Shown here in pieces: positions 15,516 to 55,273 of a stretch of DNA of 64,000 bases. The stretch covers positions 103,204 to 167,203 of the forward strand of contig OZ246405.1 in assembly GCA_965231005.1 (NCBI GenBank), written 5' to 3'. The position numbers were made by a program, and so were the translations under genes. The first letter of the stretch is position 1. Every line of letters begins with the position of its first letter. This DNA comes from an uncultured Gammaproteobacteria bacterium. GTDB taxonomy: Bacteria > Patescibacteriota > Patescibacteriia > Magasanikbacterales > UBA922. The notes under the pieces were generated by a model, which was not told where the DNA came from, made no database searches, and worked only from the letters and a program-made list of their open reading frames with translations.

Positions 15516-15565
15516 TATGGCCTCTAAAGCCTTTATGGCATTTATGGCCTTTTAAGCCTTTTAGC
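15516..15565. repeat. Copy 1 of dispersed GCCTTTAAAGGC/GGCATTTATGGCC palindromic repeat family (abuts start codon of TPP enzyme)
   Basis: TATGGCCTCTAAAGCCTTTATGGCATTTATGGCCTTTTAAGCCTTTT with 9-10-bp periodicity. Confidence 0.7.
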
Positions 15566-17206
15566 ATGAACGCAGCAGACCTTTTTGTACGAGCACTAGA
15601 AAATGAAGGAGTTGAATATATATTTGGTGTTCCAGGAGAAGAAAACCTTCGACTTTTAGAATCAATCTCAAAATCATCAATAACATTAATAGTTACCCGG
15701 CACGAACAAGGTGCTGGTTTTATGGCTGCAACATATGGCAGACTTACTGGAAAACCAGGTGTGTGTCTTTCGACCCTTGGTCCAGGAGCAACAAATTTAG
15801 TTACTGCTGCAGCCTATGCCCAACTTGGAGGAATGCCAATGCTCATGATTACAGGACAAAAACCAATTAAAAGAAGCAAGCAAGGACATTTCCAAATTAT
15901 CAATACAGTGGAAATGTTTCACCCCCTCACAAAATTAAGTAAGCAACTTACAAATGGAAACCATATTTCTGCAGCAGTACGAAATGCATTTAAAATTTCA
16001 ATGGAAGAGCGTCCTGGTGCAGTTCACTTAGAACTTCCAGAAGATATTGCAGAAGAACAAACAACTCAAGGACTTTACAAACCGAAAAAAATGAGAAAAC
16101 CAACACCAGATGAAAATGCAATGGATGAAGCAATAAAGATGATAGAGCAAGCAAAACATCCCCTCCTTCTTATTGGTGCAGCAGCAAATAGAAAAAAAAT
16201 TTCACAAGAACTCCGTAAATTTATAGACAAGACTGGTATTTATTTTTTCAATACACAAATGGGTAAAGGTGTTGTTGATGAACGACATGAACAATTTTTA
16301 GGGACAGCTGCACTTTCAGAAGATGACTACGTTCACTGCGCAATTGACCATGCTGATTTGATTATTAATGTTGGGCATGATGTTATTGAAAAACCACCAT
16401 TTATTATGAAACATCTTGGACCGCAAGTCATTCACATTAATTTTCTTCCAGCAAAAATTGATGATGTGTACTTTCCACAACACGAGGTCGTTGGCGATAT
16501 CGACAATGCACTTGAATATATAAATAACAATATTGAAGTGCAGAACCACTGGGATTCTTCGTATTACAAAAGACTAGAAATAGGACTTGAACAAGATATA
16601 GCAAAGAATACTACAAATAATTCTTTTCCTGTCCTTCCACAACGGCTTGTTGCAGATGTTCGTAATGTTATGCCCGATGATGGCATTGTCACGCTTGATA
16701 ATGGCATGTATAAAATTTGGTTTGCTAGAAATTATAAGGCACATAAACCAAACACGCTCCTGCTCGATAATGCACTCGCAACAATGGGAGCAGGACTTCC
16801 TTCTGCCATGATGGCAAAGCTGCTTTATCCAGAAAAGAAAGTACTGGCTGTTGTAGGAGATGGTGGATTTATGATGAATTCTCAAGAAATGGAAACAGCG
16901 ATTCGTCTTAAACTTGATTTGACTGTTATTGTTATTAGTGACAAAGCGTATGGCATGATTAAGTGGAAACAAGCAGAGATGGAGTTAGAAGACTTTGGAC
17001 TAGATTTTGAAAATCCTAATTTTATAACATATGCAGAAAGCTATGGCGCAAAAGGATATCGTATAAACAAAACAGAAGAATTGAAAAAATTATTAGACAA
17101 AACAATGAATGAAAAAGGAATTCATCTGATTGAGGTGCCAATTGATTATTCTGTAAATACTCATATTATTAGCCAAGAATTAAAAGAAAAGGCTTGTAAA
17201 TTTTAA
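15566..17206 (+). CDS. Thiamine-pyrophosphate enzyme, acetolactate synthase large-subunit-like
   Basis: N-terminal TPP-enzyme domain, central domain and C-terminal TPP-binding motif (GDGGFMMNSQE). The ORF track starts upstream inside the repeat; the ATG at 15566 is the likelier start. Confidence 0.75.
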   Translation: MNAADLFVRALENEGVEYIFGVPGEENLRLLESISKSSITLIVTRHEQGAGFMAATYGRLTGKPGVCLSTLGPGATNLVTAAAYAQLGGMPMLMITGQKPIKRSKQGHFQIINTVEMFHPLTKLSKQLTNGNHISAAVRNAFKISMEERPGAVHLELPEDIAEEQTTQGLYKPKKMRKPTPDENAMDEAIKMIEQAKHPLLLIGAAANRKKISQELRKFIDKTGIYFFNTQMGKGVVDERHEQFLGTAALSEDDYVHCAIDHADLIINVGHDVIEKPPFIMKHLGPQVIHINFLPAKIDDVYFPQHEVVGDIDNALEYINNNIEVQNHWDSSYYKRLEIGLEQDIAKNTTNNSFPVLPQRLVADVRNVMPDDGIVTLDNGMYKIWFARNYKAHKPNTLLLDNALATMGAGLPSAMMAKLLYPEKKVLAVVGDGGFMMNSQEMETAIRLKLDLTVIVISDKAYGMIKWKQAEMELEDFGLDFENPNFITYAESYGAKGYRINKTEELKKLLDKTMNEKGIHLIEVPIDYSVNTHIISQELKEKACKF

Positions 17207-17216
17207 TAAAATACAT

Positions 17217-18581
17217 ATGCCACTGTTATCTCACAATCCAGCGACAGGACAAGATGTTCAACATTTTGAAGAATTAAGTGATGATGCTGTTCAAGAAAAA
17301 ATAGCAAAAGCACAGACAGCGTTTGCCTCGTGGAAAAAGACAAGTTTTGAACACAGAGCTTCACTTATGTTGGAATTACAATCTGTATTATTGAGCCAAG
17401 AAAGAAAGTGGGCAGCAATCTCTACACTTGAAATGGGGCGGCCAATCACCCAATCTCTTGCAGCAGTAAGAAAGTGTGCATGGCTTTGTGAATACTATGC
17501 TGAAAACGCTGAGAAATTTTTAATTGAAGAACATGCTCAAACAGAAAACAAAGAAAGTTATGTCCAATTTGATCCGCTCGGCATTATTCTTGCAGTTATG
17601 CCGTGGAATTATCCTTACTGGCAAGTAATCCGTTTTGCTGCACCCGCAATTATGAGTGGAAATGTTGGACTCTTAAAACATGCGTCCAATGTGCCGCAAT
17701 GTTCAGAAGCACTTGAAAAAATGTTTCAACTGGCTGGTTTTCCAGAAGGTGTATTTCAGAATCTTCTTATTGGTTCTAAAAAAGTTGAAGGTATTTTGCG
17801 CGATCCACGTGTTCAAGCAGCAACATTAACAGGAAGTGAATACGCTGGAAGAAAAGTTGCAGAAACATGTGGTGACGAAATCAAAAAAACATTGCTCGAA
17901 CTTGGTGGCAGTGATCCATTTATTGTACTCGCTGATGCAGATCTTGAACTTGCATGTACTATTGGGACAACGGCACGGCTACAAAATACAGGACAAAGTT
18001 GTATTGCTGCAAAACGATTCATTGTGGTAGAAGAGCGATATGATGAATTTGTTGCCTTGTATAAAAAGAAATATGAACAGCAAATTGTTGGTGACCCAAC
18101 AGATGAAAAAACAACAATCGGTCCAATGGTTTCAAAGCAAGCAGTTGAAGAAATTGATGAACAAGTGAAAAAAAGTATTGCTCTTGGAGCAGAACTTATT
18201 GTTGGTGGAAAGAAAGTTGATCGACCAGGATATTTTTATGAGCCAACAATTTTAGGAAATGTAAAAAAAGGAATGCCATTTTATGACGAAGAAGTTTTTG
18301 GTCCTGGTGCTGCAATTATAAAAGTAAAAGATGAAGAAGAAGCAATTCGTGTTGCAAACGACACACCATTTGGTCTTGGTTCTTCTATTTGGACAACAGA
18401 TATTGAAAAAACAAAAAAACTCGCAGCAAACATAGATGCTGGCGCTGTATTTATCAATGGCATGGTAAAGTCTGATCCTCGCCTTCCGTTTGGTGGAATA
18501 AAAAAATCAGGCTATGGACGTGAACTTGCAAAATACGGGATTATGGAATTTGTAAATGCAAAGACAGTTGTGGTGGCCTAA
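17217..18581 (+). CDS. NAD(P)-dependent aldehyde dehydrogenase (succinate-semialdehyde DH-like)
   Basis: 454 aa. ALDH motifs ELGGSDP and catalytic Cys context GQSCIAAKR. Confidence 0.85.
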   Translation: MPLLSHNPATGQDVQHFEELSDDAVQEKIAKAQTAFASWKKTSFEHRASLMLELQSVLLSQERKWAAISTLEMGRPITQSLAAVRKCAWLCEYYAENAEKFLIEEHAQTENKESYVQFDPLGIILAVMPWNYPYWQVIRFAAPAIMSGNVGLLKHASNVPQCSEALEKMFQLAGFPEGVFQNLLIGSKKVEGILRDPRVQAATLTGSEYAGRKVAETCGDEIKKTLLELGGSDPFIVLADADLELACTIGTTARLQNTGQSCIAAKRFIVVEERYDEFVALYKKKYEQQIVGDPTDEKTTIGPMVSKQAVEEIDEQVKKSIALGAELIVGGKKVDRPGYFYEPTILGNVKKGMPFYDEEVFGPGAAIIKVKDEEEAIRVANDTPFGLGSSIWTTDIEKTKKLAANIDAGAVFINGMVKSDPRLPFGGIKKSGYGRELAKYGIMEFVNAKTVVVA

Positions 18582-18606
18582 AAATTTAAACAAAAAAAGA
18601 CCTGTG

Positions 18607-18900
18607 TCAATGGAGCACAGGTTCAAATCTTAGATTAACGATTTTCCCATCTTTTAATTTTTCCTTTTTTCGTACAGACGCCTTTACTGGCAAGACAAAC
18701 TCACCTTCTTTTGTTGGAAAAATACTTGTTGGCCAGGTTGTTTCTCCAATAGTTACCATAACACGAATACTCCCAAAACCACGCCGTTTTTGCTTATATC
18801 CCTTTTTAATTTTTGCAGAAAGTGTTTTATTGATTGTTAAAAAATGCCAAGAACCCTTTTCTCCGCTCCAAATCCAAAGCTTTGTTTTTGTCTTATACAT
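18607..18900 (-). CDS. DUF1905-family small protein
   Basis: C-terminus GETTWPTSIFPTKEGEFVLPVKASVRKK...GKIVNLRFE matches the DUF1905 consensus. Start placed at MYKTKTK. Confidence 0.5.
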   Translation of the reverse strand: MYKTKTKLWIWSGEKGSWHFLTINKTLSAKIKKGYKQKRRGFGSIRVMVTIGETTWPTSIFPTKEGEFVLPVKASVRKKEKLKDGKIVNLRFEPVLH

Positions 18901-18982
18901 AATGTAACTACTATCACCTATTGGAATAGTATACCAAAAAAATGCCCCTGCCCTGACTATTGCCAGGACAGGGACGAAAAGG

Positions 18983-19357
18983 TCACACTCCATGCAAAGC
19001 AAAGAGCTCGTTGATCTCTCCACTCTTGACCTTGTCCAGGTACACTTGTTCATCATTGGTGAATGACACCGGGAGCTCCTGCACAGCCGGAAGCGCCATC
19101 ACCTTCTCAGCATCTCCTTCTTCAAGACACTTGTCCTGCTCCAGAATCCGAGACACCATTGCCTGTGACTGCACAGGTGCAGGATGACGTCCAGTTCCAT
19201 CCTCTGAAATGATGATGATGTGATGGTGATCTCCTGCAGTTTCACAATCACACCGAATCGAAGCTCGTCGTGTAACAGACATACTTCCATAACATTTTTC
19301 GATCCTTATGGCATGATAGTAATCTGGATCCAAGACAACATGGTTGTGTTCACTCAT
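18983..19357 (-). CDS. Hypothetical protein in a short GC-rich (about 50%) patch (MSEHNHVVLDPDYY...)
   Basis: Strong RBS AAGGAGGAAGTC before the ATG. His/Cys-containing (CDCETAGDHHH). No family recognised. Confidence 0.45.
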   Translation of the reverse strand: MSEHNHVVLDPDYYHAIRIEKCYGSMSVTRRASIRCDCETAGDHHHIIIISEDGTGRHPAPVQSQAMVSRILEQDKCLEEGDAEKVMALPAVQELPVSFTNDEQVYLDKVKSGEINELFALHGV

Positions 19358-19569
19358 GACTTCCTCCTTATGGAAGTTGAAAAATTTTGGCAAAACCAAA
19401 ACCCTCTCTTTCGAGAGGGGGTTATGTTGATGAATAGTAAAAAAATATCAAGACAACTCACTCTCGAAAGAGAAAGTTGTTACGACGAAAATTATATTGT
19501 GAATATATCGCATTTATCATATATATTTACCCTAGCATGATTACCTATATACGTCAATACTAAATAAGA

Positions 19570-19890
19570 CTATATTACATGTAGCAGTAATATCATGAGT
19601 AATATAAAAACCAAAAAACTAACTTCTGTACCAAGCAATACAAGTGCATCTTTTTTCTTTTTTTCAAGGTACAAATAAACTGGCCCTCCAAAAACAAGAA
19701 GAAAGCAAACAAGTGCTGAGACAACAAATAGCATCAAAAACGTTATAGCACCAAATATTTCTGGTGATGATCCAAAAATTTTATCACCATTCATCATGAG
19801 TAAACTGACTAGAAATACATACCAAACAAGTCCCATTGATGTTAGCGTGCCAATTGAATACAGTTTGTGGTTGTTGTGTTTCTTTTTCAT
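19570..19890 (-). CDS. Small membrane protein (3 TM)
   Basis: 106 aa, hydrophobic. A terminator hairpin, CCCTCTC..GAGAGGG + T-run, lies just downstream at 19385-19420. Confidence 0.45.
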   Translation of the reverse strand: MKKKHNNHKLYSIGTLTSMGLVWYVFLVSLLMMNGDKIFGSSPEIFGAITFLMLFVVSALVCFLLVFGGPVYLYLEKKKKDALVLLGTEVSFLVFILLMILLLHVI

Positions 19891-19948
19891 ATTATTAATC
19901 TACAAAAAGTATAACATAAAAAATACTCGGCATAATAGCCGAGCACTC

Positions 19949-21289: not shown

Positions 21290-21419
21290 GTGTTTGTATA
21301 TATGACCCGATGTTCTTGTAGGTCATATACTGACAAAAAGATTCGAGTCGTCGTGCTGCTCGCGAGCGGCGCGACTTAAATGAATAACTTATTCTACCAC
21401 AGAAGTTGTATTTTGTCAA
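21290..21419 (-). promoter_or_regulatory. Promoter (TTGACA-17-TAGAAT) plus roughly 110-nt structured 5'UTR of the DEAD-box helicase gene
   Basis: Consensus hexamers at 21414-21419 and 21391-21396 on the minus strand. The UTR contains the GC palindrome GCTCGCGAGC and a 9-bp inverted repeat TATATGACC..GGTCATATA immediately before the ATG. Confidence 0.55.
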
Positions 21420-21434
21420 GACTTCCTTCTTTTT

Positions 21435-21863
21435 TCAATTTGTATTTACCATATACGTTTCTAAAAATTTTTTAATCGCTTCTACAGTTGCGTCCTTTAC
21501 TGTTGGATCACTTGCTGCAACCCATTTAGCAAAATTATACAGTGTTTGATTCTCCACATCAAACCATTTACCATTCCTGTACAAAAATACAAGCAACGTA
21601 GTCATTGCAATCCTTTTATTTCCATTTTGAAATGGATGATTTTTAATCATAAGATAGAAAAGAATTGCTGCTTTTTCAATTAATCCTTTGTAAAATACTT
21701 TCCGCGAAAATGTTTGAAATGGAGTGTGAAGACAACTTTCAAGAACACCCTTGTACCGCGTACTAAAATCAGGAATTGGTTCATTCCATGATAATGTTTC
21801 TTTTGCCAGTGCGTGAGACACTTCTTCCACATCCCCAATTGTAAGAATTTGTATCTTTGCCAT
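21435..21863 (-). CDS. doc: Doc (death-on-curing) / Fic-family toxin
   Basis: HPFQNGNKRIAMTT motif, which is the Doc variant of the Fic motif. 142 aa. Confidence 0.75.
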   Translation of the reverse strand: MAKIQILTIGDVEEVSHALAKETLSWNEPIPDFSTRYKGVLESCLHTPFQTFSRKVFYKGLIEKAAILFYLMIKNHPFQNGNKRIAMTTLLVFLYRNGKWFDVENQTLYNFAKWVAASDPTVKDATVEAIKKFLETYMVNTN

Positions 21864-21865
21864 AC

Positions 21866-22135
21866 CTATTCTTTTGCCAATAACTTGAGTGTTTCACCAT
21901 ATTGAGACACGGTCTTCTTAACAGCCTTCCTTATTTCTTCTTTTTCCTTATCTGAGGGTTTTTTGTCAATCAAGTGAGCCACATCTTTTTTGTCAATAAC
22001 AAAATTGCGACCGACTTTTTTAGCTGGAATATCTCCTTTTTTTATTTTTTGAAACACAGCCACACGACTAATTCCAAGTAATGCAGCCAGCTCAGTTGTA
22101 GAAATAAGATTTTTCATATAGTTACATATTAACAT
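21866..22135 (-). CDS. HTH DNA-binding protein (excisionase/MerR-like), putative antitoxin of Doc
   Basis: LAALLGISRVAVFQKIKKGDIPAKKVGRNFVI HTH. Sits immediately upstream of doc with a 2-nt gap. Confidence 0.6.
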   Translation of the reverse strand: MLICNYMKNLISTTELAALLGISRVAVFQKIKKGDIPAKKVGRNFVIDKKDVAHLIDKKPSDKEKEEIRKAVKKTVSQYGETLKLLAKE

Positions 22136-22171
22136 ATGTTAAGTGATGTGTCAAATGTTAACATATGTTAA
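22129..22171. promoter_or_regulatory. Two copies of 14-bp palindrome TTAACATATGTTAA (putative operator of the HTH-doc operon)
   Basis: Perfect palindromes at 22129-22142 and 22158-22171, 29 bp centre to centre, overlapping the RBS/promoter region of the HTH gene. Confidence 0.6.
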
Positions 22172-22232
22172 GTTTCTAGCCACGTAGCCCATTATTCCCC
22201 ATTGAGCTAGAATCTGTTATCATTAACAGACT

Positions 22233-22730: not shown

Positions 22731-22740
22731 TCTCAAATCA

Positions 22741-22771
22741 AAAACACCCTGCAAGTCAGGGTGTTTTTAAA
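22741..22771. terminator. Bidirectional rho-independent terminator
   Basis: ACACCCTG caagt CAGGGTGT flanked by an A-run and a T-run. Confidence 0.75.
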
Positions 22772-22772
22772 T

Positions 22773-22976: not shown

Positions 22977-22996
22977 AGTGTTTACATTAATATAAA

Positions 22997-34959: not shown

Positions 34960-35049
34960 AGTGGAAGTATTATAGCAGCCATGAATGTTTCTATCAAATG
35001 GCAATACGAGAAAGATAATACTATATAGAGAGAAATTTGTCAATCCAAC

Positions 35050-35150
35050 AAAAGCCATAAAGGCCGTAAAGGCTCTAAAGGCTTTTTTAAACCCATGTTC
35101 TGTCCTGGTTAAACATTTACGGCATTTATGGCCTTTAAAGCCTTTTCGTA
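35050..35150. repeat. Copy 2 of the GCCTTTAAAGGC palindromic repeat family (two inverted half-arrays), directly abutting the rpmE promoter
   Basis: AAAGCCATAAAGGCCGTAAAGGCTCTAAAGGC ... ACGGCATTTATGGCCTTTAAAGCC. Confidence 0.7.
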
Positions 35151-35179
35151 TTGACAAGAAATTGTTCCCATGCTATACT
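35151..35179 (+). promoter_or_regulatory. Sigma70 promoter of rpmE (TTGACA-17-TATACT)
   Basis: Consensus hexamers with 17-bp spacing. Confidence 0.65.
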
Positions 35180-35234
35180 GCTGCCACTTTCAATATTAGG
35201 CAATTTGAGCCAAATTCTTATACACATTTTGTTT

Positions 35235-35570
35235 ATGAAAAAAGATATTCATCCAACAAGTCATCCTGTCGTTTTTGTCGATACTTCTTGTAATGAAGAA
35301 TTTATCACAACATCAACAATGACATCAGAAGAAACTCGAGATATCGATGGCGTAAAGCACTATGTCATCCATGTTGAAATTTCATCAGCGTCTCACCCAT
35401 TCTATACTGGGAAGCAAATTCTTATCGATACAGCACGCCGTGTTGAGAAATTTCAAGAACGTGCAAAGAAACAAGCTGCAGCTGCTGCAACAAGAAAAGG
35501 AAAAAAAGGAAAGAAAACAAAGGCTACTGCAAAGAAAGAAGAAAAAGCTACAAAAGAAACTTCAAAATAG
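35235..35570 (+). CDS. rpmE: 50S ribosomal protein L31 with K/A/E-rich C-terminal tail
   Basis: MKKDIHP..HPVVFVD N-terminus typical of L31. C-terminus is basic repetitive. Confidence 0.85.
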   Translation: MKKDIHPTSHPVVFVDTSCNEEFITTSTMTSEETRDIDGVKHYVIHVEISSASHPFYTGKQILIDTARRVEKFQERAKKQAAAAATRKGKKGKKTKATAKKEEKATKETSK

Positions 35571-40022: not shown

Positions 40023-40496
40023 GTGTACGAAATACCCCTTATTTTAAACAAAAGTGAAAAAAACAGGCACTTTTTGCGAATTCTTTTGACAAAAAAATAT
40101 CTGCACCTTATAGTGAATACACTATTATTAATCTCACTACATCTGCAAAAGGAGGCCAAACAACACAACCTACTACAAGAAATTTTAGAGGTTGTTATTT
40201 TTATTAAGGACAATGCTGTTTCTAAAGATGAATTCCAGGAATTTAGAAAAGAGGTAAATACTAAATTTAAAAAAATTGATGAAAGATTTGAGAAAGTAGA
40301 CGAAAGATTTGACCAGATTGATAAAAGATTCGAGAAAGTAGACGAAAGATTTGACCAGATTGATAAAAGATTCGAGAAAGTAGACGAAAAATTTAGACAA
40401 ACAGAAAATACAATCATTCATCATGTAGATGGACTTATTAAACTTCACACAAATCTTGAATCGAAAGTCAGAAAACTTGCATTGAGAAAAAATTAA
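40023..40496 (+). CDS. Coiled-coil protein with 14-aa tandem repeats (IDKRFEKVDERFDQ) x about 2.7; start uncertain
   Basis: 42-nt DNA tandem repeat at 40278-40400. A consensus promoter (TTGACA-17-TATAGT, 40086-40114) lies inside the annotated ORF, so the true start is unclear. Confidence 0.4.
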   Translation: MYEIPLILNKSEKNRHFLRILLTKKYLHLIVNTLLLISLHLQKEAKQHNLLQEILEVVIFIKDNAVSKDEFQEFRKEVNTKFKKIDERFEKVDERFDQIDKRFEKVDERFDQIDKRFEKVDEKFRQTENTIIHHVDGLIKLHTNLESKVRKLALRKN

Positions 40497-40557: not shown

Positions 40558-40981
40558 CCTGATCTATATGCTGACAAGCAAGATGTAGATCAGTCTCTCA
40601 CTGCTAGCAACAGCCAGACAAGGCGTATTGCGGGGAGAGAGTGCGAGTGTTTGTACTCACAAACCGTAATATGTATTGTACTGGCTGAAGCCAGCAGTGG
40701 GATAGGAAGTCTTCCCTCACTCCCCCTCTTGTAAAAAAGAGGAAGAGAGTTGGGTTGCGGACGATGGGTTTGAATACATCGTCCGCGAAACCCTCCTTGA
40801 TGAGATTCTGCTGCCGAGGCTTCGTCCTTTCAGACTAGAGGAACATCAATCACCCCTAAATGCTGTTTATGTCATCCACACAACTTCCGCCATCCCGAAG
40901 TGTGCTTCTCTATCAAGTCATTAATCTCCTGTATCGCGTTGCGATGAGTTGTTGAGCCGGACGAACCGACGAGCGGTTGAA

Positions 40982-41806
40982 CTACGCGGCGATCGCGGTG
41001 TCGGACGTGTTGGACGAGGTGTCGGGCTTGGTGGTGTCGGTCTCGAAGTTGGACGACCGACGGGGGATCTCACCGACCGGACCGCGCGGCTGGAACGTGA
41101 TCTCGTCCTGCCGCTTGGCGCCGAACCAGTTCACGCACTGCGAGCGCAGCTCGCCGTACTCGTTGCGCGGGTCGACGCGGATCGGACCGAGGTTGCCGTT
41201 GCGACCGAGGTGCTCACGACGCGTGGCCTCGAACTGCTCGTTCTCGCGCTGCCGACGCTTGTTCACGAAGTTCCGACGACGCGCGCGCTGCTTCTGCCGA
41301 TCCTGCCCCTTGCCGTTGCGCTTGGCCTCGCGCTCGCGCTGCTCAGCCGCCTTCTCCGCCTCCTCCGCCTTGATGTCGGCGACGAAGTCGTCGTAGGTGA
41401 ACGAGAAACGCTCGCACAGCTGGCGGAGCTTGTCCTGATCACCGGCGAAGTAGGCCCGACGACACGCACGGATCGCGCGCTGCAGGTCATGCTCGCGCTC
41501 GCGCATGGTACGCTGGTCGTCCTTCAGGCGCTGCTGGATCTGGGCCTCGCGGACCGCTTCCTTCAGCTCCGTCAGCTTCAGCCCCTTGATCTCGTCATCG
41601 GACATGCCAGCCTGGACGGCCTTGTTCTGCCAGTAGGACGTGGTGCGCTTGTCCGTGGACACGCCGGCCAGGCCCTTGAACATGTTCGGATCGGGCGCGA
41701 GCTCGGACATCTTGACACGCTTCAGACGCGGCGCCATGGACTTGACGTTGACGCGCTTGACGTTGGGGCGCTTGTTGGACGTGCTCTTCTTGCTGCTGCT
41801 AGCCAT
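40982..41806 (-). CDS. Highly charged (K/R/E/D/Q-rich) 274-aa hypothetical protein in a 65% GC segment
   Basis: RBS GGAGAAGAAAA then ATG (MASSSKKSTS...). Coiled-coil-like charged repeats. The antisense 325-aa ORF is Leu/Arg/Val/Gly/Ala-rich, as expected for antisense translation of a GC-rich charged-residue gene. Confidence 0.45.
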   Translation of the reverse strand: MASSSKKSTSNKRPNVKRVNVKSMAPRLKRVKMSELAPDPNMFKGLAGVSTDKRTTSYWQNKAVQAGMSDDEIKGLKLTELKEAVREAQIQQRLKDDQRTMREREHDLQRAIRACRRAYFAGDQDKLRQLCERFSFTYDDFVADIKAEEAEKAAEQREREAKRNGKGQDRQKQRARRRNFVNKRRQRENEQFEATRREHLGRNGNLGPIRVDPRNEYGELRSQCVNWFGAKRQDEITFQPRGPVGEIPRRSSNFETDTTKPDTSSNTSDTAIAA

Positions 41807-42380
41807 TTTTCTTCTCCGTTGAAATGGCAACCTATGTGTAAACTCGGTCTGAGTTCTATAGCGCACCAATCCAGGCACGCCAACCACTGTTTTCTTTCAT
41901 GCACCGTGCAATCAGATAAACACTAGGAGTTCGGTAAATCCCCCCAGCGTATACACCTATGGCTAGGCATACGTTGGGAGAATTTTCCTCAGCAACAATT
42001 GTTGACTTGATATGGAAAGAACGTTTGTTTGTTTGAGTTTGATTCAACAGAGAAGAGCGACGGACGTGTTGGGCAGGTAATATATTTTGTCCCTCAGCTG
42101 TTCGCTCTTTTCTGTTACCTCAAACATACTCTTTCTGCAATCCGGCCTTTAGGCCGGAAAACAAAACACCTTCTTGGTAGAAGGTGTGATGCGAAATGCT
42201 TGAATTTCACTATCTTGTTTATTCGAGTGTGAAACAAGATAATGTACATTTCCACCAATCCTCTCTCCAGAGATGATGAATAGTTGGGTTGTAAGGGCCG
42301 TACCTACGACAAACTCTTTTTGATTTTTAACAGCACAGTATAACACAAAAAAAAGGTTTTGTCAAGACCCTTCCCTGCTT

Positions 42381-42412
42381 GAAAAAATAAAAAAATGGCT
42401 ATACTAAGCCAA
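42381..42412 (-). terminator. Rho-independent terminator after ftsW/rodA-type gene (second of two hairpins)
   Basis: TGGCTTAGTATAGCCA followed by TTTTTTTATTTTTT on the minus strand. Preceded by a CTTGGCT..AGCCAAG hairpin. Confidence 0.7.
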
Positions 42413-42473
42413 ATATTTAGTAATCCTTGGCTACACTAAGCCAAGTTTTATTAATAATGTTCCCTCTAGGAAA

Positions 42474-48307: not shown

Positions 48308-48321
48308 TATAGATATATACA

Positions 48322-48355
48322 GAAAAACTCGCCAACCATGGCGAGTTTTTGTTAT
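48322..48355 (+). terminator. Rho-independent terminator after rplK
   Basis: CTCGCC aaccatg GGCGAG followed by TTTTTG. Confidence 0.7.
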
Positions 48356-48385
48356 ACTTGTTTCATCCAAGTAAATAAACTATAT

Positions 48386-49309: not shown

Positions 49310-49328
49310 AACAATTTTTTTTGTCACT

Positions 49329-50150
49329 ATGCAGATTAAAAAAATAATTATTCTCTCTCTTGCACTCATACTTGTTGGTGCAGGATGTTCGGATACACCA
49401 GAAGAACCAACAAAGGTGGTTGTACAACCAATAAAAAAAGAGATAGTGAAAAAACCAGAATCCTCGCCACCAATTGAAAAAGCATATCAATTTTGTAAAT
49501 CTCAAGGATACAATATTGTTATGCATTATGACACAATCGCAAAAAAGAATGTTATTAGCTGTGTCTTTTCAAATAATACACAATGTGAAGCAGTACATTA
49601 TCTAAAAGGAATGTGTGGGCCAGATGCTGGTGCGCGTATTGCTACAGGACCAATAGACAATAACCTCACTGCTTTGAGGTATTGCGATAGAACCAGCCCT
49701 CCAGTCTGTGGTGCAGATGGACACAATTATTCAAATCACTGCGTAGCAGCACAGCAGAATGTAAAAATTCTGCATGAAGGACTTTGTACAGAAAGTGAGC
49801 AGGCAAACCCACTGACCACACAATCGCCTACAGCAGCAATTCCAAACACATCAAACAATGGTAGTGTTGTTCCTCAAAACGAACAGCAAACAAAAGAACC
49901 AGCTCCATGGCTAAGTACACTGTTTGATTTGATTCAATCTCAGCAACCACTTAATCCTCGGACATTTGTAGAACGGTGCAACTATGCTGGTGAGACCTAT
50001 TATCACTATGTTGAAGGCTGTAAAAACTGTTTCAGTATTCTCTATAATTACGATAGCACCATAGCATGTTTCCCAAATAATGATATAAATATCTCCTGTC
50101 CAGGAAACTTTAAAGGAAACTGTACAAGAATCTGGAGAGATAATCGGTAA
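49329..50150 (+). CDS. Lipoprotein with Kazal-type inhibitor-like cysteine domain(s)
   Basis: Lipobox LVGAGC. CDRTSPPVCGADGHNYSNHCVAAQQNVKILHEGLC matches the Kazal pattern C..PVCG.DG..Y.N.C...C. Confidence 0.5.
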   Translation: MQIKKIIILSLALILVGAGCSDTPEEPTKVVVQPIKKEIVKKPESSPPIEKAYQFCKSQGYNIVMHYDTIAKKNVISCVFSNNTQCEAVHYLKGMCGPDAGARIATGPIDNNLTALRYCDRTSPPVCGADGHNYSNHCVAAQQNVKILHEGLCTESEQANPLTTQSPTAAIPNTSNNGSVVPQNEQQTKEPAPWLSTLFDLIQSQQPLNPRTFVERCNYAGETYYHYVEGCKNCFSILYNYDSTIACFPNNDINISCPGNFKGNCTRIWRDNR

Positions 50151-50285
50151 ATGCTGTAAATGCCTTAAAAGCCAAAAAGGCTTTAAAGGCTGAAAGAACC
50201 CTATACATCGATAAGGAGTCTCTCAATGAAAATGCAAAGAGCCTTTAAAGCTTTTACGGCATTTATGGCCTTTTGGGCATTTTAG
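50145..50285. repeat. Copy 3 of the GCCTTTAAAGGC palindromic repeat family (two inverted half-arrays) abutting the rplA promoter
   Basis: GCCTTAAAAGCCAAAAAGGCTTTAAAGGC ... GCCTTTAAAGCTTTTACGGCATTTATGGCCTTTTGGGCA. Confidence 0.7.
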
Positions 50286-50289
50286 AGAC

Positions 50290-50330
50290 TTGACAAAAAA
50301 CCGAAACGTGGGTATAATGCGCCCACGTTT
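50290..50330 (+). promoter_or_regulatory. Sigma70 promoter of rplA (TTGACA-17-TATAAT) with 9-bp inverted repeat AAACGTGGG..CCCACGTTT straddling the -10
   Basis: Perfect consensus hexamers. The palindrome arms lie at 50303-50311 and 50321-50329. Confidence 0.65.
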
Positions 50331-50385
50331 TTATTCATGTGGGATCTGGCCAAAATCCAGAGTTTGTACCACATAATATATATTT

Positions 50386-51087
50386 ATGAAAAAAGCAAAG
50401 AACAAAGGAGTTTCTAAGCGCATGCAAGAAAACCTTGCAAAAATCGACAAGACAAGAACATATAGTCTTGACGAAGCTATTTCTCTTGTAAAAGAGACAA
50501 GTACCGTAAAATTTGATGCTGCTGTTGAAGTTCACATACGACTTGGTATTGATCCAAAAAAGAGTGACCAACAAATCCGCTCAACAGTAACACTTCCTCA
50601 CGGAACTGGTAAAACAAAAAAGATTGCAGCATTTGTAGGAAACAACGACGAAGATGCAGCAAAAAAAGCAGGAGCTGATTTTGTTTACGGAGAAGAAGAA
50701 ATCAAAAAAATTAAAAACACAGGAAAAATTGAATTTGATGTAGCAGTTGCTACACCAGAAATGATGCCAAAACTTGCAGGTATTGCAAAAGTTCTTGGAC
50801 CACGTGGGCTTATGCCAAATCCAAAGACTGACACTGTAGGTCCTGATGTGGCAAAAATGGTTGAGCAGTTGAAAAAAGGAAAATCATCATTTAAAAATGA
50901 TGATACAGCAAATATTCATCAACCAATCGGAAAAGTGAGCTTTGAAGATGGAAAACTAAGAGAAAATTTTGAAGCATTTATTGCTGTCCTTAAAAAGGTA
51001 AAACCAAATTCAGCAAAAGGAACATACTTGAAATCTGTATACCTTACAAGTAGCATGGGGCCAAGTGTAAAGATTGCAATGGACTAA
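50386..51087 (+). CDS. rplA: 50S ribosomal protein L1
   Basis: 233 aa, typical L1 sequence (VEVHIRLGIDPKKSDQQIR). Confidence 0.9.
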   Translation: MKKAKNKGVSKRMQENLAKIDKTRTYSLDEAISLVKETSTVKFDAAVEVHIRLGIDPKKSDQQIRSTVTLPHGTGKTKKIAAFVGNNDEDAAKKAGADFVYGEEEIKKIKNTGKIEFDVAVATPEMMPKLAGIAKVLGPRGLMPNPKTDTVGPDVAKMVEQLKKGKSSFKNDDTANIHQPIGKVSFEDGKLRENFEAFIAVLKKVKPNSAKGTYLKSVYLTSSMGPSVKIAMD

Positions 51088-51102
51088 TCCAACTTACAAC
51101 AT

Positions 51103-51140
51103 AAAACACCTCCGAGTATATCAGAGGTGTTTTTTTTATT
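51103..51140. terminator. Bidirectional rho-independent terminator
   Basis: ACACCTC cgagtatatcag AGGTGT followed by TTTTTTTT. Confidence 0.7.
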
Positions 51141-51149
51141 TATTGTCTA

Positions 51150-51944
51150 CTATTTAAAAAGTAACACTAATGAAGAAACAATAACAACAGCTGCAAAAAT
51201 CATTTTCACCCATGCATTCCCCTTTTTCAATGCTGTATGAATACCAATATATCCACCAACCAACATGCCAAAAAATAATGCAAATCCATATTCCCAATGA
51301 ATCATTCCATTGCTAATAAAAATCCAAAGAGAAACAATAGAAAGCGCTACACCAGAAACACGCTGAGTCGCATTTGCCTTATTAATACTAAAACCAAAGA
51401 AAAGCATCATGATGTAGAAAATAATAGTAGACGCTCCACCTGCAAAAAAAGCTGCCCATGCAGAAGCCACAAAATACAAGCCATATCCAACACCCTTTCT
51501 TAATCCTTTGTGTTCTGTATGTACAATACCTAACTTTGGTTTTATAAGAATAACAGGAAGGAGTGTCAACATTACAACTACAATAATGCCTTTGAGTACT
51601 CCTTCATCAGTATCAATGAGTATGTTTGTACCAACAAAAGCCCCCATAGCAGCAAGGATAAAAAACCAAGGTACAAATTTCCACAAAATCTCTTTTGACT
51701 TCAAAAACCTTGTTATGGCACCTATCTGAAGTCCAAAAGATCCTAATCTATTCGTTGCAATAGCAATATGTGGAGGTAAACCTAAAAAAATGAGAAATGG
51801 AATACTGACCAGCCCACCGCCGCCTACCATAGAACCAAAAAAGGCCGCAAAGGCTCCAATAAAAAATGTAGAGATAATTCCAGGTACATTCATAATTATG
51901 TTGCTAAATAGTACAGCAACAGTATACACTAGATTTGGGAACAA
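51150..51944 (-). CDS. TSUP (TauE/SafE) family membrane transporter
   Basis: Two homologous halves with GGGLVSIPFL and ATNRLGS motifs. Confidence 0.7.
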   Translation of the reverse strand: MFPNLVYTVAVLFSNIIMNVPGIISTFFIGAFAAFFGSMVGGGGLVSIPFLIFLGLPPHIAIATNRLGSFGLQIGAITRFLKSKEILWKFVPWFFILAAMGAFVGTNILIDTDEGVLKGIIVVVMLTLLPVILIKPKLGIVHTEHKGLRKGVGYGLYFVASAWAAFFAGGASTIIFYIMMLFFGFSINKANATQRVSGVALSIVSLWIFISNGMIHWEYGFALFFGMLVGGYIGIHTALKKGNAWVKMIFAAVVIVSSLVLLFK

Positions 51945-52108
51945 CCGAAGCCTTTGGCCATTAAAATCGAGTGTTTTCCCCTATTGCACTGTGTCTTCTG
52001 ATTTGATAATATTGATAAAAGAATGGCAACCTTGTTTCCTTCACATGCCAATATACACCCACTCTCTAGAGCGGGGTCGTTTCTTTTAGAAAGCTAACAC
52101 ATACTATT

Positions 52109-52591
52109 ATGAGCACAGAACATCGCCAAAATTTCATCTCTTGGGACGAATGCTTTATGCGTATGGCACGCACCATTGCAGAGCGGTCAAAAGATCCTTC
52201 TACGCAGGCTGGAGCCGTAATCACCACAAAAGATAATGTTGTTATTGGTCTTGGATACAATGGATTCCCACGCGGTGTAGATAATGAAACTTTCCCATGG
52301 GAAAGAGATACTTCTTTGCCACTCGACGAGACAAAATATGCATATATTTGTCATGCCGAAGAAAATGCAATTTACAATGCAAACAGCAATACAAAAGGCG
52401 GAAGAATTTACTGCACACTCTTTCCTTGTAATGAATGTGCAAAGTCAATAATTCAAAATGGCATTACAGAAGTTGTATTTGAAAGCGACAAATATCACGA
52501 CACACCTGTTTGTGCAGCCTCACGAAGAATGCTTGATGCGGCAAAAGTCAGTTGTCGTCAGTATAGCTCTGATTGGGACACAGAAAAATAA
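52109..52591 (+). CDS. dCMP deaminase (ComEB-type, CDA fold)
   Basis: CHAEENAI and PCNECAKSI zinc-binding motifs. Confidence 0.8.
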   Translation: MSTEHRQNFISWDECFMRMARTIAERSKDPSTQAGAVITTKDNVVIGLGYNGFPRGVDNETFPWERDTSLPLDETKYAYICHAEENAIYNANSNTKGGRIYCTLFPCNECAKSIIQNGITEVVFESDKYHDTPVCAASRRMLDAAKVSCRQYSSDWDTEK

Positions 52592-52608
52592 ATTGAAACA
52601 GCCTTTTT

Positions 52609-53154
52609 ATGAAAAAAATAATCATTGGTATTGTTGGTGAAAATGCATCTGGAAAAACAACAATGACAAATTATCTAAAAGAAAAATACGGAGCAATATC
52701 GTTTCGTTTTTCAGATATGCTCTCTGACATCCTTGATCGAGTCCATGTTGAAAAAAATAGAGAAAACCTTCAAGCGCTTTCTACATTTTTACGTCAAACG
52801 TACGGAGAAGACATTATGTCAAAAACACTGGCAAAGGATGTTGAACTTTCTACAAATAATGTTATTGTCACTGAAGGGATACGAAGACCAAGTGATATAA
52901 CCTATTTAAAAAATATGGAAGGTTTTATGCTTGTAGCAATTGTTGCAGACATGAAAGAACGATATGGCCGACTAAAATTCAGAAATGAAAAAAGCGATGA
53001 CAAAGAAAAAACATGGGAGCAATTTCAAATTGATGCAGAGCATGAGTCAGAACAAAAAATTGCTGAAATTGCAAAAGAAGCAGATGTTGTTATTTCAAAT
53101 AACGGGACGATTGAAGAATTATATGCACAAATTGATGAGATGATTCGCGTATGA
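52609..53154 (+). CDS. P-loop nucleotide/nucleoside kinase-like protein (dNMP-kinase or dephospho-CoA-kinase-like fold)
   Basis: Walker A IGIVGENASGKTT. 181 aa. Embedded in the thymidylate block. Confidence 0.5.
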   Translation: MKKIIIGIVGENASGKTTMTNYLKEKYGAISFRFSDMLSDILDRVHVEKNRENLQALSTFLRQTYGEDIMSKTLAKDVELSTNNVIVTEGIRRPSDITYLKNMEGFMLVAIVADMKERYGRLKFRNEKSDDKEKTWEQFQIDAEHESEQKIAEIAKEADVVISNNGTIEELYAQIDEMIRV

Positions 53155-53573
53155 AGCTAAAAGTAAAAATGCTCAAGGAAAATGCAAAAATGCCAAGCTA
53201 TGCTCATCCAGGAGATGTTGGTTTAGATCTATATTCTACAGAAGATTATACTCTCCAACCTGGAGAACGGAAAATATTTTATGTAGGTTTTGCGCTTGAA
53301 TTCGATTTTGGACATGCAGCAATTGTAAAAGATAAAAGTGGTATGGCTGCAGCTGGAATACATACGTGTGGTGGTGTTTTTGATGCAGGATACAGAGGAG
53401 AATATAATGCACAGTTAGTAAATTTTGGAACTGAACCATACGAGGTAAAGGAAGGACAAAAAATTGCACAACTTATTATTTACCCAGTAATTATTGGAGA
53501 ATTAGAAAAAGCTGATGAACTTTCTGATACTTCGAGAGGAGAAGGAAAAATGGGAAGCACAGGGAAGTTTTAG
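53151..53573 (+). CDS. dut: dUTP diphosphatase
   Basis: AGIHTCGGVFDAGYRGEY and C-terminal RGEGKMGSTG motifs. Confidence 0.85.
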   Translation: MKLKVKMLKENAKMPSYAHPGDVGLDLYSTEDYTLQPGERKIFYVGFALEFDFGHAAIVKDKSGMAAAGIHTCGGVFDAGYRGEYNAQLVNFGTEPYEVKEGQKIAQLIIYPVIIGELEKADELSDTSRGEGKMGSTGKF

Positions 53574-53595
53574 TTGAAAACTAAAACTTCGTTGA

Positions 53596-53686
53596 TTGGT
53601 TAATTAGTTTATTAGTTAATTAGGAGTCTAAGAAAAATTTTTCTTATTAATACAATTAACTAATTAACCAGTTAACAAATTAACGA
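53596..53686. repeat. AT-rich inverted repeat of TTAATTAG/AATTAAC units between dut and thyA
   Basis: TTGGTTAATTAGTTTATTAGTTAATTAGG ... AATTAACTAATTAACCAGTTAACAAATTAACG. Confidence 0.6.
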
Positions 53687-53690
53687 ATCT

Positions 53691-54563
53691 ATGAAGTCAT
53701 ATCTTGATATTGTTCGTCGCGTATTAAACGAAGGCGTAGAAAAAACCAACAGAACAGATACAAGCGCCATTGCAATTGCTGGCGCTATGTTTGAACATGA
53801 CATGGCAAAAGGATTTCCCCTTCTGACAACAAAAAAAATGCCGTTTAAAGTTATTGCAACAGAATTAGAATTTTTTATAAAAGGAATCACAGACAAAGAG
53901 TGGTTAAAAGAAAGAAAAAATCATATTTGGGATGAATGGGCACATCCACACAAAGCACCATATGGACATGATGAAGCGTCAAAACAACGAATGATGGAAG
54001 AACGTGACCTTGGACCAATTTACGGATTTCAATGGAGAAATTTTAATGCCAATTACAAAGATTATGATACAGACTACAGTGGACAAGGAGTTGATCAATT
54101 AAAAAAAGTAGTTGAAACACTCAAAACAAACCCAAACGACAGAAGAATGATTGTTATGGCGTGGAATCCATGTATGTTAGACCAGATGGCACTTCCACCA
54201 TGCCACTATGGTTTTCAAGTAACAGTAACAAATGGAAAACTCAATCTCCTGTGGAATCAACGGTCTGTAGATGTAATGCTTGGTCTTCCATTCAATATAG
54301 CAAGCTATGCACTTTTACTTCACCTTCTTGCAAAAGAAACTGGACTACAAGAAGGAAGACTTATTGGTTTTCTTGGAGATGTCCACGTATATTCAAATCA
54401 TGTCGAAGGTGCAAAAGAACAACTTGCACGTGATCCAGACCTTTACCCACTTTGTAAAATTGTAACAGACCCATTTACTTCAATTTTTGAATGGGAAGCA
54501 GGACACACCAAAAAAACAGGATATAAAAGTCATCCTAAAATCCCATTTCAAATAGCAGTCTAA
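53691..54563 (+). CDS. thyA: Thymidylate synthase (ThyA)
   Basis: 290 aa. Catalytic region LPPCHYGFQ and folate-binding motifs. Confidence 0.9.
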   Translation: MKSYLDIVRRVLNEGVEKTNRTDTSAIAIAGAMFEHDMAKGFPLLTTKKMPFKVIATELEFFIKGITDKEWLKERKNHIWDEWAHPHKAPYGHDEASKQRMMEERDLGPIYGFQWRNFNANYKDYDTDYSGQGVDQLKKVVETLKTNPNDRRMIVMAWNPCMLDQMALPPCHYGFQVTVTNGKLNLLWNQRSVDVMLGLPFNIASYALLLHLLAKETGLQEGRLIGFLGDVHVYSNHVEGAKEQLARDPDLYPLCKIVTDPFTSIFEWEAGHTKKTGYKSHPKIPFQIAV

Positions 54564-54735
54564 AAAGGCCAAAAAGGCTTTAAATGCCTTAAATGCCATA
54601 AACGCTAACATTGAAAAAAATAACATGATAGAGTACCTTGAGGAGGTAATCAAAATTTCTAAAAATAATTTAATTTGGTTCAGAAATATCAAATAAGCCT
54701 TTAAGGCCTTTGGAGCTTTTACGGCATTTACAGCA
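54563..54735. repeat. Copy 4 of the GCCTTTAAAGGC palindromic repeat family (two inverted half-arrays about 90 bp apart) upstream of folA
   Basis: AAAAGGCCAAAAAGGCTTTAAATGCCTTAAATGCCATAAACGC ... AAGCCTTTAAGGCCTTTGGAGCTTTTACGGCATTTACAGC. Confidence 0.7.
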
Positions 54736-54742
54736 TTTTTAT

Positions 54743-55216
54743 ATGATTTCTTTAATTGCTGCAATATCAGAAAATAATGTTATTGGTGTTGACAATGACC
54801 TTCCTTGGCATATTCCAGAAGATCTTAAACATTTCAAAGAAAAGACAAGTGGAAAAACAGTGCTCATGGGAAGAAAAACCTGGGAGTCTATTCCAGAAAA
54901 ATTTCGCCCCCTTCCAAAAAGAACAAATATTGTTATCACAAGACAAAAAGATTATAAAGTCCCTGAAGGAGTTGAATTATTTTTTGATATTGAAACGGCT
55001 CTTGAAAAACATAAAGGAGAAGATGTGGTTGTTATTGGCGGTGGAACAATTTACGAACAAACAATTGAAAAAGCAGACACACTCTACATTACTCATGTTG
55101 AAAAAACGATTGATGGCCATGCATTTTTCCCGTCTATAGATACTACCCAATGGAAAGAGACCGAACGCGACAACCGAGAAGGATTCTCGTTTGTTACCTA
55201 CAAAAAAAATGAATAA
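54743..55216 (+). CDS. folA: Dihydrofolate reductase
   Basis: ISLIAAISENNVIGVDNDLPWHIPEDLKHFK, GRKTWESIP and GGGTIYE motifs. Confidence 0.85.
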   Translation: MISLIAAISENNVIGVDNDLPWHIPEDLKHFKEKTSGKTVLMGRKTWESIPEKFRPLPKRTNIVITRQKDYKVPEGVELFFDIETALEKHKGEDVVVIGGGTIYEQTIEKADTLYITHVEKTIDGHAFFPSIDTTQWKETERDNREGFSFVTYKKNE

Positions 55217-55229
55217 CTAATAAACAAAT

Positions 55230-55273
55230 AGCCTTTTGAGCCTTTATGGCTTTTAAGGCATTTAAAGCCTTTT
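55230..55273. repeat. Copy 5 of the GCCTTTAAAGGC palindromic repeat family, upstream of tmk
   Basis: GCCTTTTGAGCCTTTATGGCTTTTAAGGCATTTAAAGCCTTTT. Confidence 0.7.

Follow-up and report, generated by a model that had tools for sequence, protein, structure and literature searches.

A directional module of tandem 9-bp units at gene boundaries in Magasanikbacteria

What are the short repeats that stand immediately upstream of housekeeping genes in a 64-kb stretch of DNA (contig OZ246405.1, positions 103,204 to 167,203; hereafter 'the window') from an uncultured bacterium of the Magasanikbacterales? A first-pass annotation, made from the letters of the window, described them as arrays of overlapping palindromes with a period of 9-10 bp at five dispersed intergenic sites, and offered two readings: a miniature mobile element, or binding sites for a dimeric protein that co-regulates translation-related and dTMP-synthesis genes. 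Bacteria of the Candidate Phyla Radiation (CPR) are not grown alone and have few recognisable regulators, and the control of their gene expression is hardly known. In the full-text literature we found no description of intergenic repeats in Magasanikbacteria, Patescibacteria or CPR genomes.

The array: unit, count and polarity

All five sites are present, and between them they hold eight arrays, which are the full set in the window (38% GC). Each array consists of four to five tandem 9-bp units with the consensus G1 C2 H3 T4 T5 T6 n7 n8 n9; the five-unit module is about 45 bp long and has a direction, a property absent from the earlier description. The period, given there as 9-10 bp, is exactly 9 bp: Tandem Repeats Finder reports period 9 for all eight arrays. 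Forward and reverse arrays obey one 9-bp register and one consensus. The arrays, and the cores that separate the members of inverted pairs, are as follows (E: match to profile R1, see below; units are written in the GCHTTT direction).

15520-15564, plus strand: solo array of five units, ending 1 nt before the TPP enzyme ATG (15566); E 5e-9; units GCCTCTAAA GCCTTTATG GCATTTATG GCCTTTTAA GCCTTTTAG
35047-35082, minus strand: reverse array of four units, unit 5 toward secG; E 4e-4
35083-35112: 30-bp core of the secG/rpmE pair, unrelated to other cores
35113-35148, plus strand: forward array of four units, ending 2 nt before the rpmE -35; E 3e-5
50146-50190, minus strand: reverse array of five units, unit 5 overlapping the stop TAA (50148-50150) of the Kazal-like open reading frame (ORF); E 4e-9
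50191-50240: 50-bp core of the Kazal-rplA pair, with no counterpart in relatives
50241-50285, plus strand: forward array of five units, ending 4 nt before the conserved rplA promoter; E 6e-8; units GCCTTTAAA GCTTTTACG GCATTTATG GCCTTTTGG GCATTTTAG
54561-54605, minus strand: reverse array of five units, unit 5 overlapping the thyA stop (54561-54563); E 3e-7
54606-54696: 91-bp core of the thyA-folA pair, with no counterpart in relatives
54697-54741, plus strand: forward array of five units, ending 1 nt before the folA ATG (54743); E 3e-6
55231-55275, plus strand: solo forward array of five units, starting 14 nt past the folA stop and ending 1 nt before the tmk ATG (55277); E 1e-9; units GCCTTTTGA GCCTTTATG GCTTTTAAG GCATTTAAA GCCTTTTAT

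The three-unit pattern GCHTTT(N3)GCHTTT(N3)GCHTTT matches the window 19 times as compared to 0.00 matches expected from 100 dinucleotide shuffles, and the four-unit pattern matches 11 times as compared to 0 expected from dinucleotide-preserving shuffles. Profile R1, which we built from 50 arrays of other genomes, leaving out those of the window, recovers exactly the eight arrays (E 9.5e-10 to 4e-4; the next match has E 0.076) and no genic copy at E < 0.05, as befits a dispersed and strictly intergenic family. The window sequence, arrays included, recurs unchanged in metagenome contigs assembled independently from this organism (L001, L328-L331), so the arrays are no assembly artefact. Positions G1, C2, T4, T5 and T6 are conserved at 97-100%, and position 3 is C, T or A, and never G in relatives. 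At positions 7-9 the window units have AWR-like triplets, and those of relatives YWR-like ones (CAA, TAA, CAG, TAG, CTG, CCA). It is this preference of the window genome for A at positions 7-9 that creates the overlapping palindromes (GCCTTTAAAGGC-like) noted earlier: they are real in the window copies, but relatives, which use CAA/TAA/CAG, have units without them, and the palindromes are therefore not a feature of the family. The number of units peaks at five: of 117 loosely filtered arrays, 72 have five units and 37 have four.

Pfam agrees with the gene names assigned at the sites (TPP enzyme, SecG, L31, Kazal-like protein, L1, DHFR and thymidylate kinase), and the inverted pairs described earlier at three of the five sites are confirmed, with cores of 30, 50 and 91 bp. 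A weak promoter-like sequence, TTGAAG-16-TATATT, stands upstream of the array before the TPP gene (15460-15487), and this array is therefore probably the 5' untranslated region (UTR) of that gene. The reverse array of the secG/rpmE pair lies 3 nt from the minus-strand secG -35 (TTGACA 35043-35038, 17-nt spacer, TATTAT), and its forward partner faces the rpmE promoter (TTGACA 35151, 17-nt spacer, TATACT with a TG extension). The rplA promoter (TTGACA 50290, 17-nt spacer, TATAAT) matches the hexamers at 12/12 positions. The claim that the proximal half-array ends within 0-3 bp of a -35 holds for rpmE (2 nt) and not for rplA (4 nt). In addition, the rplA promoter region (50290-50385) is kept across relatives, with the -10 inside a hairpin loop (aaacgtggg...cccacgttt); the conserved leader that follows the promoter (gtgggatctggcc...ccagagtttgtaccac), which has no Rfam match, is probably the L1 autoregulatory leader.

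To establish how the arrays are placed, we classed both ends of 74 non-identical arrays, with the following result.

Unit-5 end: start codon 30; stop codon (opposite-strand ORF) 18; sigma-70-like promoter 6; other 19; locus edge 1
Unit-1 end: start codon 5; stop codon 4; sigma-70-like promoter 2; other 63; locus edge 0

A start codon, stop codon or promoter is abutted by unit 5 in 54/73 arrays, as compared to 11/74 for unit 1. The offset of unit 5 ranges from -4 to +6 for start codons (mode +1), from -7 to +4 for stop codons and from 2 to 7 nt for promoters, and the ATG may itself fill positions 7-9 of unit 5, as it does at RecR, QueA and AtpC. Pairs that share a spacer are all (25-27 of 25-27) arranged (-,+), with unit 1 inward and unit 5 outward; the reverse layout is seen only where a complete gene separates the arrays (AtpC in L236, DnaB in L020). 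Approximately 40% of arrays are solo. The polarity holds even where the other side offers 60-130 nt of spacer. Each module stands at the outer margin of its intergenic spacer with unit 5 toward the ORF: in most cases it separates the ORF from a promoter or terminator, and in others it lies just upstream of a -35. Cores may hold a bidirectional terminator (L330; L055/L101), and in the cores of L231, L229 and L215 a -10 box lies just upstream of unit 1.

Two further ways of reading the arrays fail on inspection. The KAFKAF-type ORFs at 34985-35293 and 54480-54764 do appear in the ORF finder list and are, as had been supposed, spurious. We reject a coding or peptide reading of the arrays: the GCH-TTT-nnn frame carries TAA or TAG in most of the relatives' units, the modal +1 offset puts the array out of frame with the downstream ATG, and the frames past upstream stops are inconsistent (in frame for thyA, not for the Kazal-like ORF). 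Mini-ORFs are isolated cases, not general: MASKAFMAFMAF, followed by a stop, before the TPP gene, and AAGGAG-ATG...AFKAFTAFMAFWAF, likewise followed by a stop, in the rplA core. The latter, in which AAGGAG and then ATG within 50191-50240 open a 17-codon ORF that runs through the forward array, is probably fortuitous. Neither can the array contain a promoter, as a register of 9 bp leaves no way to space a -35-like TTGAAA (reverse strand) 16-18 bp from a -10, and the spacing of a sigma-54 promoter was not found. As regards annotation, the arrays account for the spurious 'KAFKAF' ORFs and for shifted start-codon calls in these genomes.

Distribution and turnover among relatives

The best protein matches of the window are to Magasanikbacteria. 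We scanned one genome per species, and then metagenome and viral contigs, for four consecutive units. The per-species scan returned mostly perfect simple or coding repeats from unrelated phyla; the degenerate array class was found in at least five Candidatus Magasanikbacteria metagenome-assembled genomes and one Patescibacteria bin (loci L019, L020, L023/L082/L109, L040, L101/L107 and STC_93 L055/L062/L099/L110). The metagenome scan added approximately 24 further contigs with degenerate arrays. The pattern matched 82 viral contigs, none with arrays of the degenerate family type, and we reject a phage origin on this ground. Closer to home, profile R1 detects one more inverted pair in 18 kb of flanking sequence, bringing the total to 10 arrays at 6 sites in ~82 kb. 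The density in the window genome (1.23 Mb) is about 1 array per 8 kb, and we estimate the chromosomal sites at 100 or more. With two further copies in the 18-kb flanks and dozens in other Magasanikbacteria, the family extends well past the five sites described earlier. In other genomes the arrays flank the genes of L20, L33, L9, Era, ScpB, DnaB, AtpC, RecR, QueA, UvrA, YidC and GpmI. As a practical matter, the module gives a marker for a sub-lineage of Magasanikbacteria.

Comparison with six syntenic loci (L120-L125, ~122 kb; ThyA 73-83% identical to that of the window) yields a different picture. Neither the pattern nor a relatives-only profile detects an array in any of them, and the junctions are tight: thyA and folA share an ATGA overlap or are separated by 3-9 nt, folA and tmk are joined as TAG-t-ATG, and 2-12 nt separate the Kazal-like stop codon from the rplA promoter (TTGACA-17-TATAAT) and leader, both of which the window shares. 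At exactly these junctions the window thus has net insertions of ~138 bp (Kazal-rplA), ~180 bp (thyA-folA) and ~60 bp (folA-tmk). The secG-rpmE spacer, compared by length alone, is 172 bp in another relative and 275 bp in the window, a difference (~102-103 bp) that matches the 102-bp array-core-array block. As a separate observation, the relative that carries P0127 has a diversity-generating retroelement (reverse transcriptase and bAvd) between secG and rpmE, in the very spacer that the array pair occupies in the window.

Since all six syntenic relatives lack the arrays, these are not conserved regulatory sites of the adjacent genes, a clear outcome for the presence/absence comparison suggested in the first-pass annotation. 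It follows that the second of the original proposals, operator or UP-like (upstream promoter element) sites for a dimeric regulator shared by translation-related and dTMP-synthesis genes, is extremely unlikely. Its appeal lies in the three window arrays that end 2-4 nt from strong -35 hexamers and in a gene set that includes rpmE, rplA, secG, folA and tmk. The relatives, however, keep the genes and the rplA promoter without any array, the palindromes are not conserved in the family, and elsewhere the module borders diverse, unrelated housekeeping genes as well as 3' ends. Only 3/8 window arrays and 6/74 overall stand where an UP element or activator site would; the other five window arrays are at start or stop codons, away from promoters, and the array, 45 bp long with GC every 9 bp, is unlike the A/T-rich block at -40 to -60 that makes up an UP element. 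As judged by sequence comparison, the array is a lineage-restricted interspersed module, and not the operator of a specific regulon.

Genomes that do carry arrays keep them at orthologous sites even where the flanking genes of the two contigs share only 70-90% identity. In six independent in-register orthologous pairs (flanking genes 70-85% identical, spacer on the unit-1 side close to random) we counted 5 mismatches in 150 core positions as compared to 56 in 120 at positions 3, 7, 8 and 9, a contrast that is in part ascertained, the arrays having been found by their core. L055 and L208 have identical arrays with differing sequence on both sides. Changes in length are of whole units: 9 bp between L055 and L101, 18 bp between L099 and L201, and a one-unit shift between L020 and L215. 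The last two loci are the best-resolved case: they share a homologous 240-bp core between two divergent genes, to which L020 adds further sequence beside each ATG, and L215 retains a single unit-like GCTTTTATT. Because the core is ancestral, the L020 pair represents two separate additions rather than one inserted element.

Are the arrays mobile? Partner arrays are 70.7% identical as compared to 70.8-72.5% for non-partners, and copies resemble each other no more than sequences drawn from the unit profile do. Between 4 and 384 bp long, the 26 cores are unrelated except at orthologous sites, and we rejected a conserved element body, no core sequence being common to the copies. At the outer ends of 25 pairs the longest shared direct word is 3.6 as compared to 3.45 for mismatched flanks (p = 0.25), that is, there is no sign of a target-site duplication, in a test that is blind to a 2-bp TA duplication as the unit ends are TA-rich; the TA...TA duplication suspected at the rplA and folA pairs does not rise above chance. 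The 64-kb window contains no transposase, integrase or RAYT (REP-associated tyrosine transposase; REP, repetitive extragenic palindrome), and its 18-kb extensions no transposase either. Presence and absence at orthologous sites do vary, with six syntenic relatives lacking arrays and ~5 polymorphic sites among the array-bearing genomes. Thus, of the proposed MITE/REP-like identity (MITE, miniature inverted-repeat transposable element), the classical MITE is not supported, given the unrelated cores, the unlike arms, the missing target-site duplication and the ancestral core of L020/L215, and REP-like is still a reasonable term in the loose sense of an extragenic repeat retained by its host.

Possible readings: protein binding, RNA, and selfish or neutral origins

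The fixed grammar, the polarity toward ORF ends and the conservation across species predict a dedicated protein or translation mechanism. The reading we prefer, at a probability of roughly 40%, is that of an oriented array for cooperative protein binding to double-stranded DNA, akin to REP elements and bacterial interspersed mosaic elements (BIMEs) or to iterons. We place it on the duplex because only there is every copy the same object. A sequence-specific protein would bind the array duplex cooperatively, with one protomer per unit, as is suggested by the invariant core, the fixed 9-bp register, the preferred count, the use of both orientations and the lack of complementarity between partners, along with the fast turnover of the other positions and the persistence of arrays in place. 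Binding at the level of DNA is also suggested by the secG/rpmE pair, which sits in a probably untranscribed spacer between divergent -35 boxes. Several points weigh against this reading. There is no obvious candidate for the binding protein in the 64-kb window. Most arrays lie in probable UTRs, tight on start or stop codons, which points toward a role in RNA or translation: it is not obvious why a DNA-binding protein should keep to codons. At ~5 of ~19 orthologous sites (located by gene flank) the array is present in one genome only, three-unit alleles are found, and the constraint on array presence and copy number, as far as alignments tell, is not absolute; to this one should add the partial ascertainment of the core-conservation test. 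In the window lineage the thyA-folA and Kazal-rplA cores are novel sequence, acquired together with the arrays or later, which is more reminiscent of a composite element being inserted. Finally, AT-rich array families with 7-8 bp units co-occur with the module, and could reflect a general repeat-generating process in place of a multitude of binding proteins.

The codon-hugging placement would be accommodated by an element at the level of RNA, with (GCHUUUnnn)x5 in 5' UTRs and (nnnAAADGC)x5 in 3' UTRs acting in transcripts. In such a scheme the U-rich forward array could be a ribosome-loading leader independent of the Shine-Dalgarno (SD) sequence, and reverse and forward arrays on a polycistronic RNA could pair as a long imperfect hairpin, bringing the stop near the downstream AUG and so keeping translational coupling, or forming a site for processing or stability. 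In 48/73 arrays the unit-5 end lies against a start or stop codon, with the +1 mode and the ATG-containing units mentioned above; orientation follows the gene, the sense strand having GCHUUU where the array is 5' and AAADGC where it is 3'; -10-like boxes 3-25 nt upstream of unit 1 would make the array the entire 5' UTR; and at 3' ends the stop codon comes first, then the array, then an intrinsic terminator. The setting is also congenial: SD sequences are almost absent from start regions of the window and L120-L124, the aT-ATG context is strong, and several -10 boxes lie just 8-12 nt from the ATG, which suggests that leaderless or very-short-leader mRNAs are widespread in the lineage. An array between promoter and ATG would give such a leaderless mRNA a leader that consists of the array alone. 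A single GCHTTT as a general start-codon signal was not seen in array-free relatives. Array pairs give more stable folds than shuffled sequences (z -2.6 and -3.4), but these scores are as for any inverted repeat and, there being no partner-specific similarity (70.7% vs 70.8-72.5%), we rejected a selected hairpin; in register, 5/9 positions pair. The two orientations would yield distinct RNAs and nonetheless obey one consensus, ~40% of arrays are solo, a terminator in the core keeps two arrays off one RNA, and arrays upstream of a -35, along with the divergent secG/rpmE pair, are probably outside the transcript of the adjacent gene. Searching the arrays against Rfam 15 gave no match at the gathering score, and at E <= 1 only noise from plant miRNA-type hairpins. 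On balance we regard an RNA-level element as possible, if doubtful.

We consider it unlikely that the module is a selfish, non-autonomous insertion of the foldback or MITE type, with tandem-repeat inverted arms and a variable loop, mobilised in trans, of which a solo array would be one half or a decayed copy. The precision of the insertions at genes that otherwise overlap or abut (180 bp at thyA-folA, 138 bp at Kazal-rplA and ~102 bp at secG-rpmE), the patchy distribution within Magasanikbacteria, the gains and losses among related array-bearing genomes, the dominance of the paired form with unit 5 always outward, and the nested inverted arrays formed by other unit types at 4766-5056 would all suit such an element, and it would then be a bacterial interspersed repeat of a new type, whose arms are tandem arrays. 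It is harder to square with cores that are unrelated, arms no more alike than random copies and so without a sign of recent copying, the absence of target-site duplications above chance, arrays added separately around the ancestral core of L020 and L215, position-specific conservation in place, and the lack of mobility genes in the window and of family-type arrays in viral contigs. A neutral or nearly neutral by-product of slippage-prone short repeats in a compact genome under weak selection, the placement rules being those of tolerated insertions, is very unlikely. Whole-unit indels among closely related genomes (L055/L101, 9 bp; L099/L201, 18 bp), the co-occurrence of several unrelated unit families, and an overall tandem-array density that for the majority of array-bearing loci is 2.5-7.5 per 10 kb, as compared to 0-1 in array-free relatives, speak for it, and in compact spacers any insert abuts genes. 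Slippage, however, homogenises whole units, whereas here five positions are fixed and four free; moreover, the motif recurs at dozens of independent sites in several species, the copy number peaks at five, and the polarity is strict even with 60-130 nt of spacer on the other side.

If a protein does bind the arrays on DNA, its downstream role is a matter of speculation. The module could be a polar gene-boundary element, insulating or blocking transcription that leaves a gene and letting in transcription that enters it; alternatively, it could be a docking site for nucleoid organisation or topology. RNA polymerase would pass the barrier from unit 1 to unit 5 and be stopped from unit 5 to unit 1, and a one-way barrier of this kind would, speculatively, fit the orientation rule in all contexts. 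That the arrays and a lineage-specific protein form a genome-wide polar boundary system that punctuates the transcription units of a compact genome without SD sequences and with largely leaderless mRNAs is quite unlikely as a whole; if true, gene punctuation of this sort, be it a boundary system or an SD-independent initiation leader, would be of a kind undescribed in bacteria. A role as DNA-uptake sequences is unlikely because the arrays are purely intergenic.

Known repeats and other features of the window

REP/BIME elements of enterobacteria and pseudomonads are extragenic, occur in tens to hundreds of copies and as inverted pairs near stop codons, and are species-specific and vertically retained; they act as docking sites for gyrase, IHF and Pol I and as stabilisers of mRNA 3' ends. 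Like these elements (including REPINs), our arrays are extragenic and multi-copy and form inverted pairs tight against stop codons. Unlike the REP unit, which is an imperfect palindrome with a stem-loop and a conserved GTAG read by RAYT, the array is a directional 5 x 9-bp tandem with no conserved self-complementarity; many arrays stand directly before start codons, and no RAYT is seen in the window. Cyanobacterial short tandemly repeated repetitive (STRR) sequences are nearly perfect heptamers of variable number, dispersed, extragenic, present in many copies and of unknown function. The arrays resemble them as dispersed, extragenic, lineage-restricted blocks of short tandem units, and differ in their 9-bp period, five fixed and four free positions, count of five, polarity and inverted pairing. 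Arrays bound by ribbon-helix-helix (RHH) proteins (7 bp for omega of pSM19035, 8 bp for ParG, 8 bp for MetJ, 11 bp for ParR/parC of R1) comprise 4-10 units, each taking one dimer cooperatively, and parC of R1 is built as 5 + 5 around a promoter core. RHH iterons and the module share contiguous short repeats with a conserved core and a degenerate rest, in direct and inverted orientation; unlike RHH arrays, which sit at promoters of their own plasmid or regulon, the module is found at unrelated genes and is promoter-adjacent in 6/74 arrays. To our knowledge, a 9-bp period is without precedent among RHH arrays.

Among mobile repeats, MITEs (Correia/NEMIS, RUP, Nezha) are short intergenic insertions with inverted arms, lineage presence/absence and foldable transcripts, and eukaryotic foldback elements have arms of short tandem repeats and variable loops; unlike either, the arrays lack a target-site duplication, a conserved body and arm-to-arm similarity above background. 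At the RNA level, the unit recalls boxA, the NusB/NusE site (GCUCUUUAACAA-like leader RNA, bound by NusB-S10): the 9-mer GCTCTTTAA agrees with the unit consensus at 8/9 positions. We treat this as a lead only, and know of no precedent for five tandem copies of boxA together with reverse copies. A likeness of the unit to the T7 epsilon enhancer, and possible anti-SD/SD mimicry (CCUUUC / GAAAGG), are likewise leads only. Borg tandem repeats are perfect, each essentially unique, recent and often in-frame in genes (PMC9879509). Like them, the arrays are abundant intergenic tandem repeats of an uncultivated lineage whose close relatives are without them; unlike them, they repeat one degenerate motif over many sites, and this motif is retained between species. 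The closest known kinds are REP/BIME, STRR and RHH iteron arrays, and the module differs from each in defining respects.

Several other arrays in the window have a comparable layout and different units. The dut-thyA junction (53591-53688) holds (GTTRATTR)x4, a 31-bp core and (AATTAACN)x4, an architecture alike to that of the module; the element ends 5 nt before the thyA ATG, and the dut-thyA gap of relatives is 3 bp. The same AATWAAC core reaches start codons directly at atpG (L107 1967-2003) and pyruvate kinase (L110 4997-5020). Intergenic DNA at 4766-5056 contains nested (AACAATT)n and (TATCTAA)n with inverted copies in the order A-B-core-B'-A', that at 9745-9807 (AACAAWT)x5 with an inverted partner, and that at 14506-14625 (GAAATTAG)x3 facing its inverse x4. 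A mini-array with 8-bp period, TTTTTGCC TTTTTGCC (reverse AAAGGCAA; 5309-5330; E 0.94), follows the stop codon of a 1273-aa helicase and may be an array seed or remnant. Coding repeats occur as well: a 42-bp tandem repeat at 40275-40394 (2.9 copies, 96% matches) lies in a 148-aa ORF without Pfam match, and a 32-bp repeat x1.9 occupies a spacer at 42396-42455.

The palindrome TTAACATATGTTAA, present twice at 22128-22172, lies upstream of a gene pair for an 89-aa HTH_17 and a 142-aa Fic/DOC protein (21435-22135, minus strand) and looks like a classical autoregulated operator of the toxin-antitoxin type, in contrast to the arrays. Two compositional anomalies match neither Pfam nor Rfam: a sharp GC-rich island at 40949-41926 (62% as compared to a background of 37%) with long overlapping ORFs on both strands, where the public assembly calls a 298-aa gene, and ~0.9 kb of 47% GC at 12200-13100, where the ORFs, overlapping and on both strands, are all short. 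A small cysteine-rich ORF with its own terminator (MECTYCGAPVEEFACYDCEACEGCGCMCDK; 5152-5247), located past the nested AT-rich arrays, may encode a metal-binding peptide or one resembling ribosomally synthesised and post-translationally modified peptides. Finally, a single 794-aa ORF at 9808-12192 fuses glucose-6-phosphate dehydrogenase and 6-phosphogluconate dehydrogenase domains.

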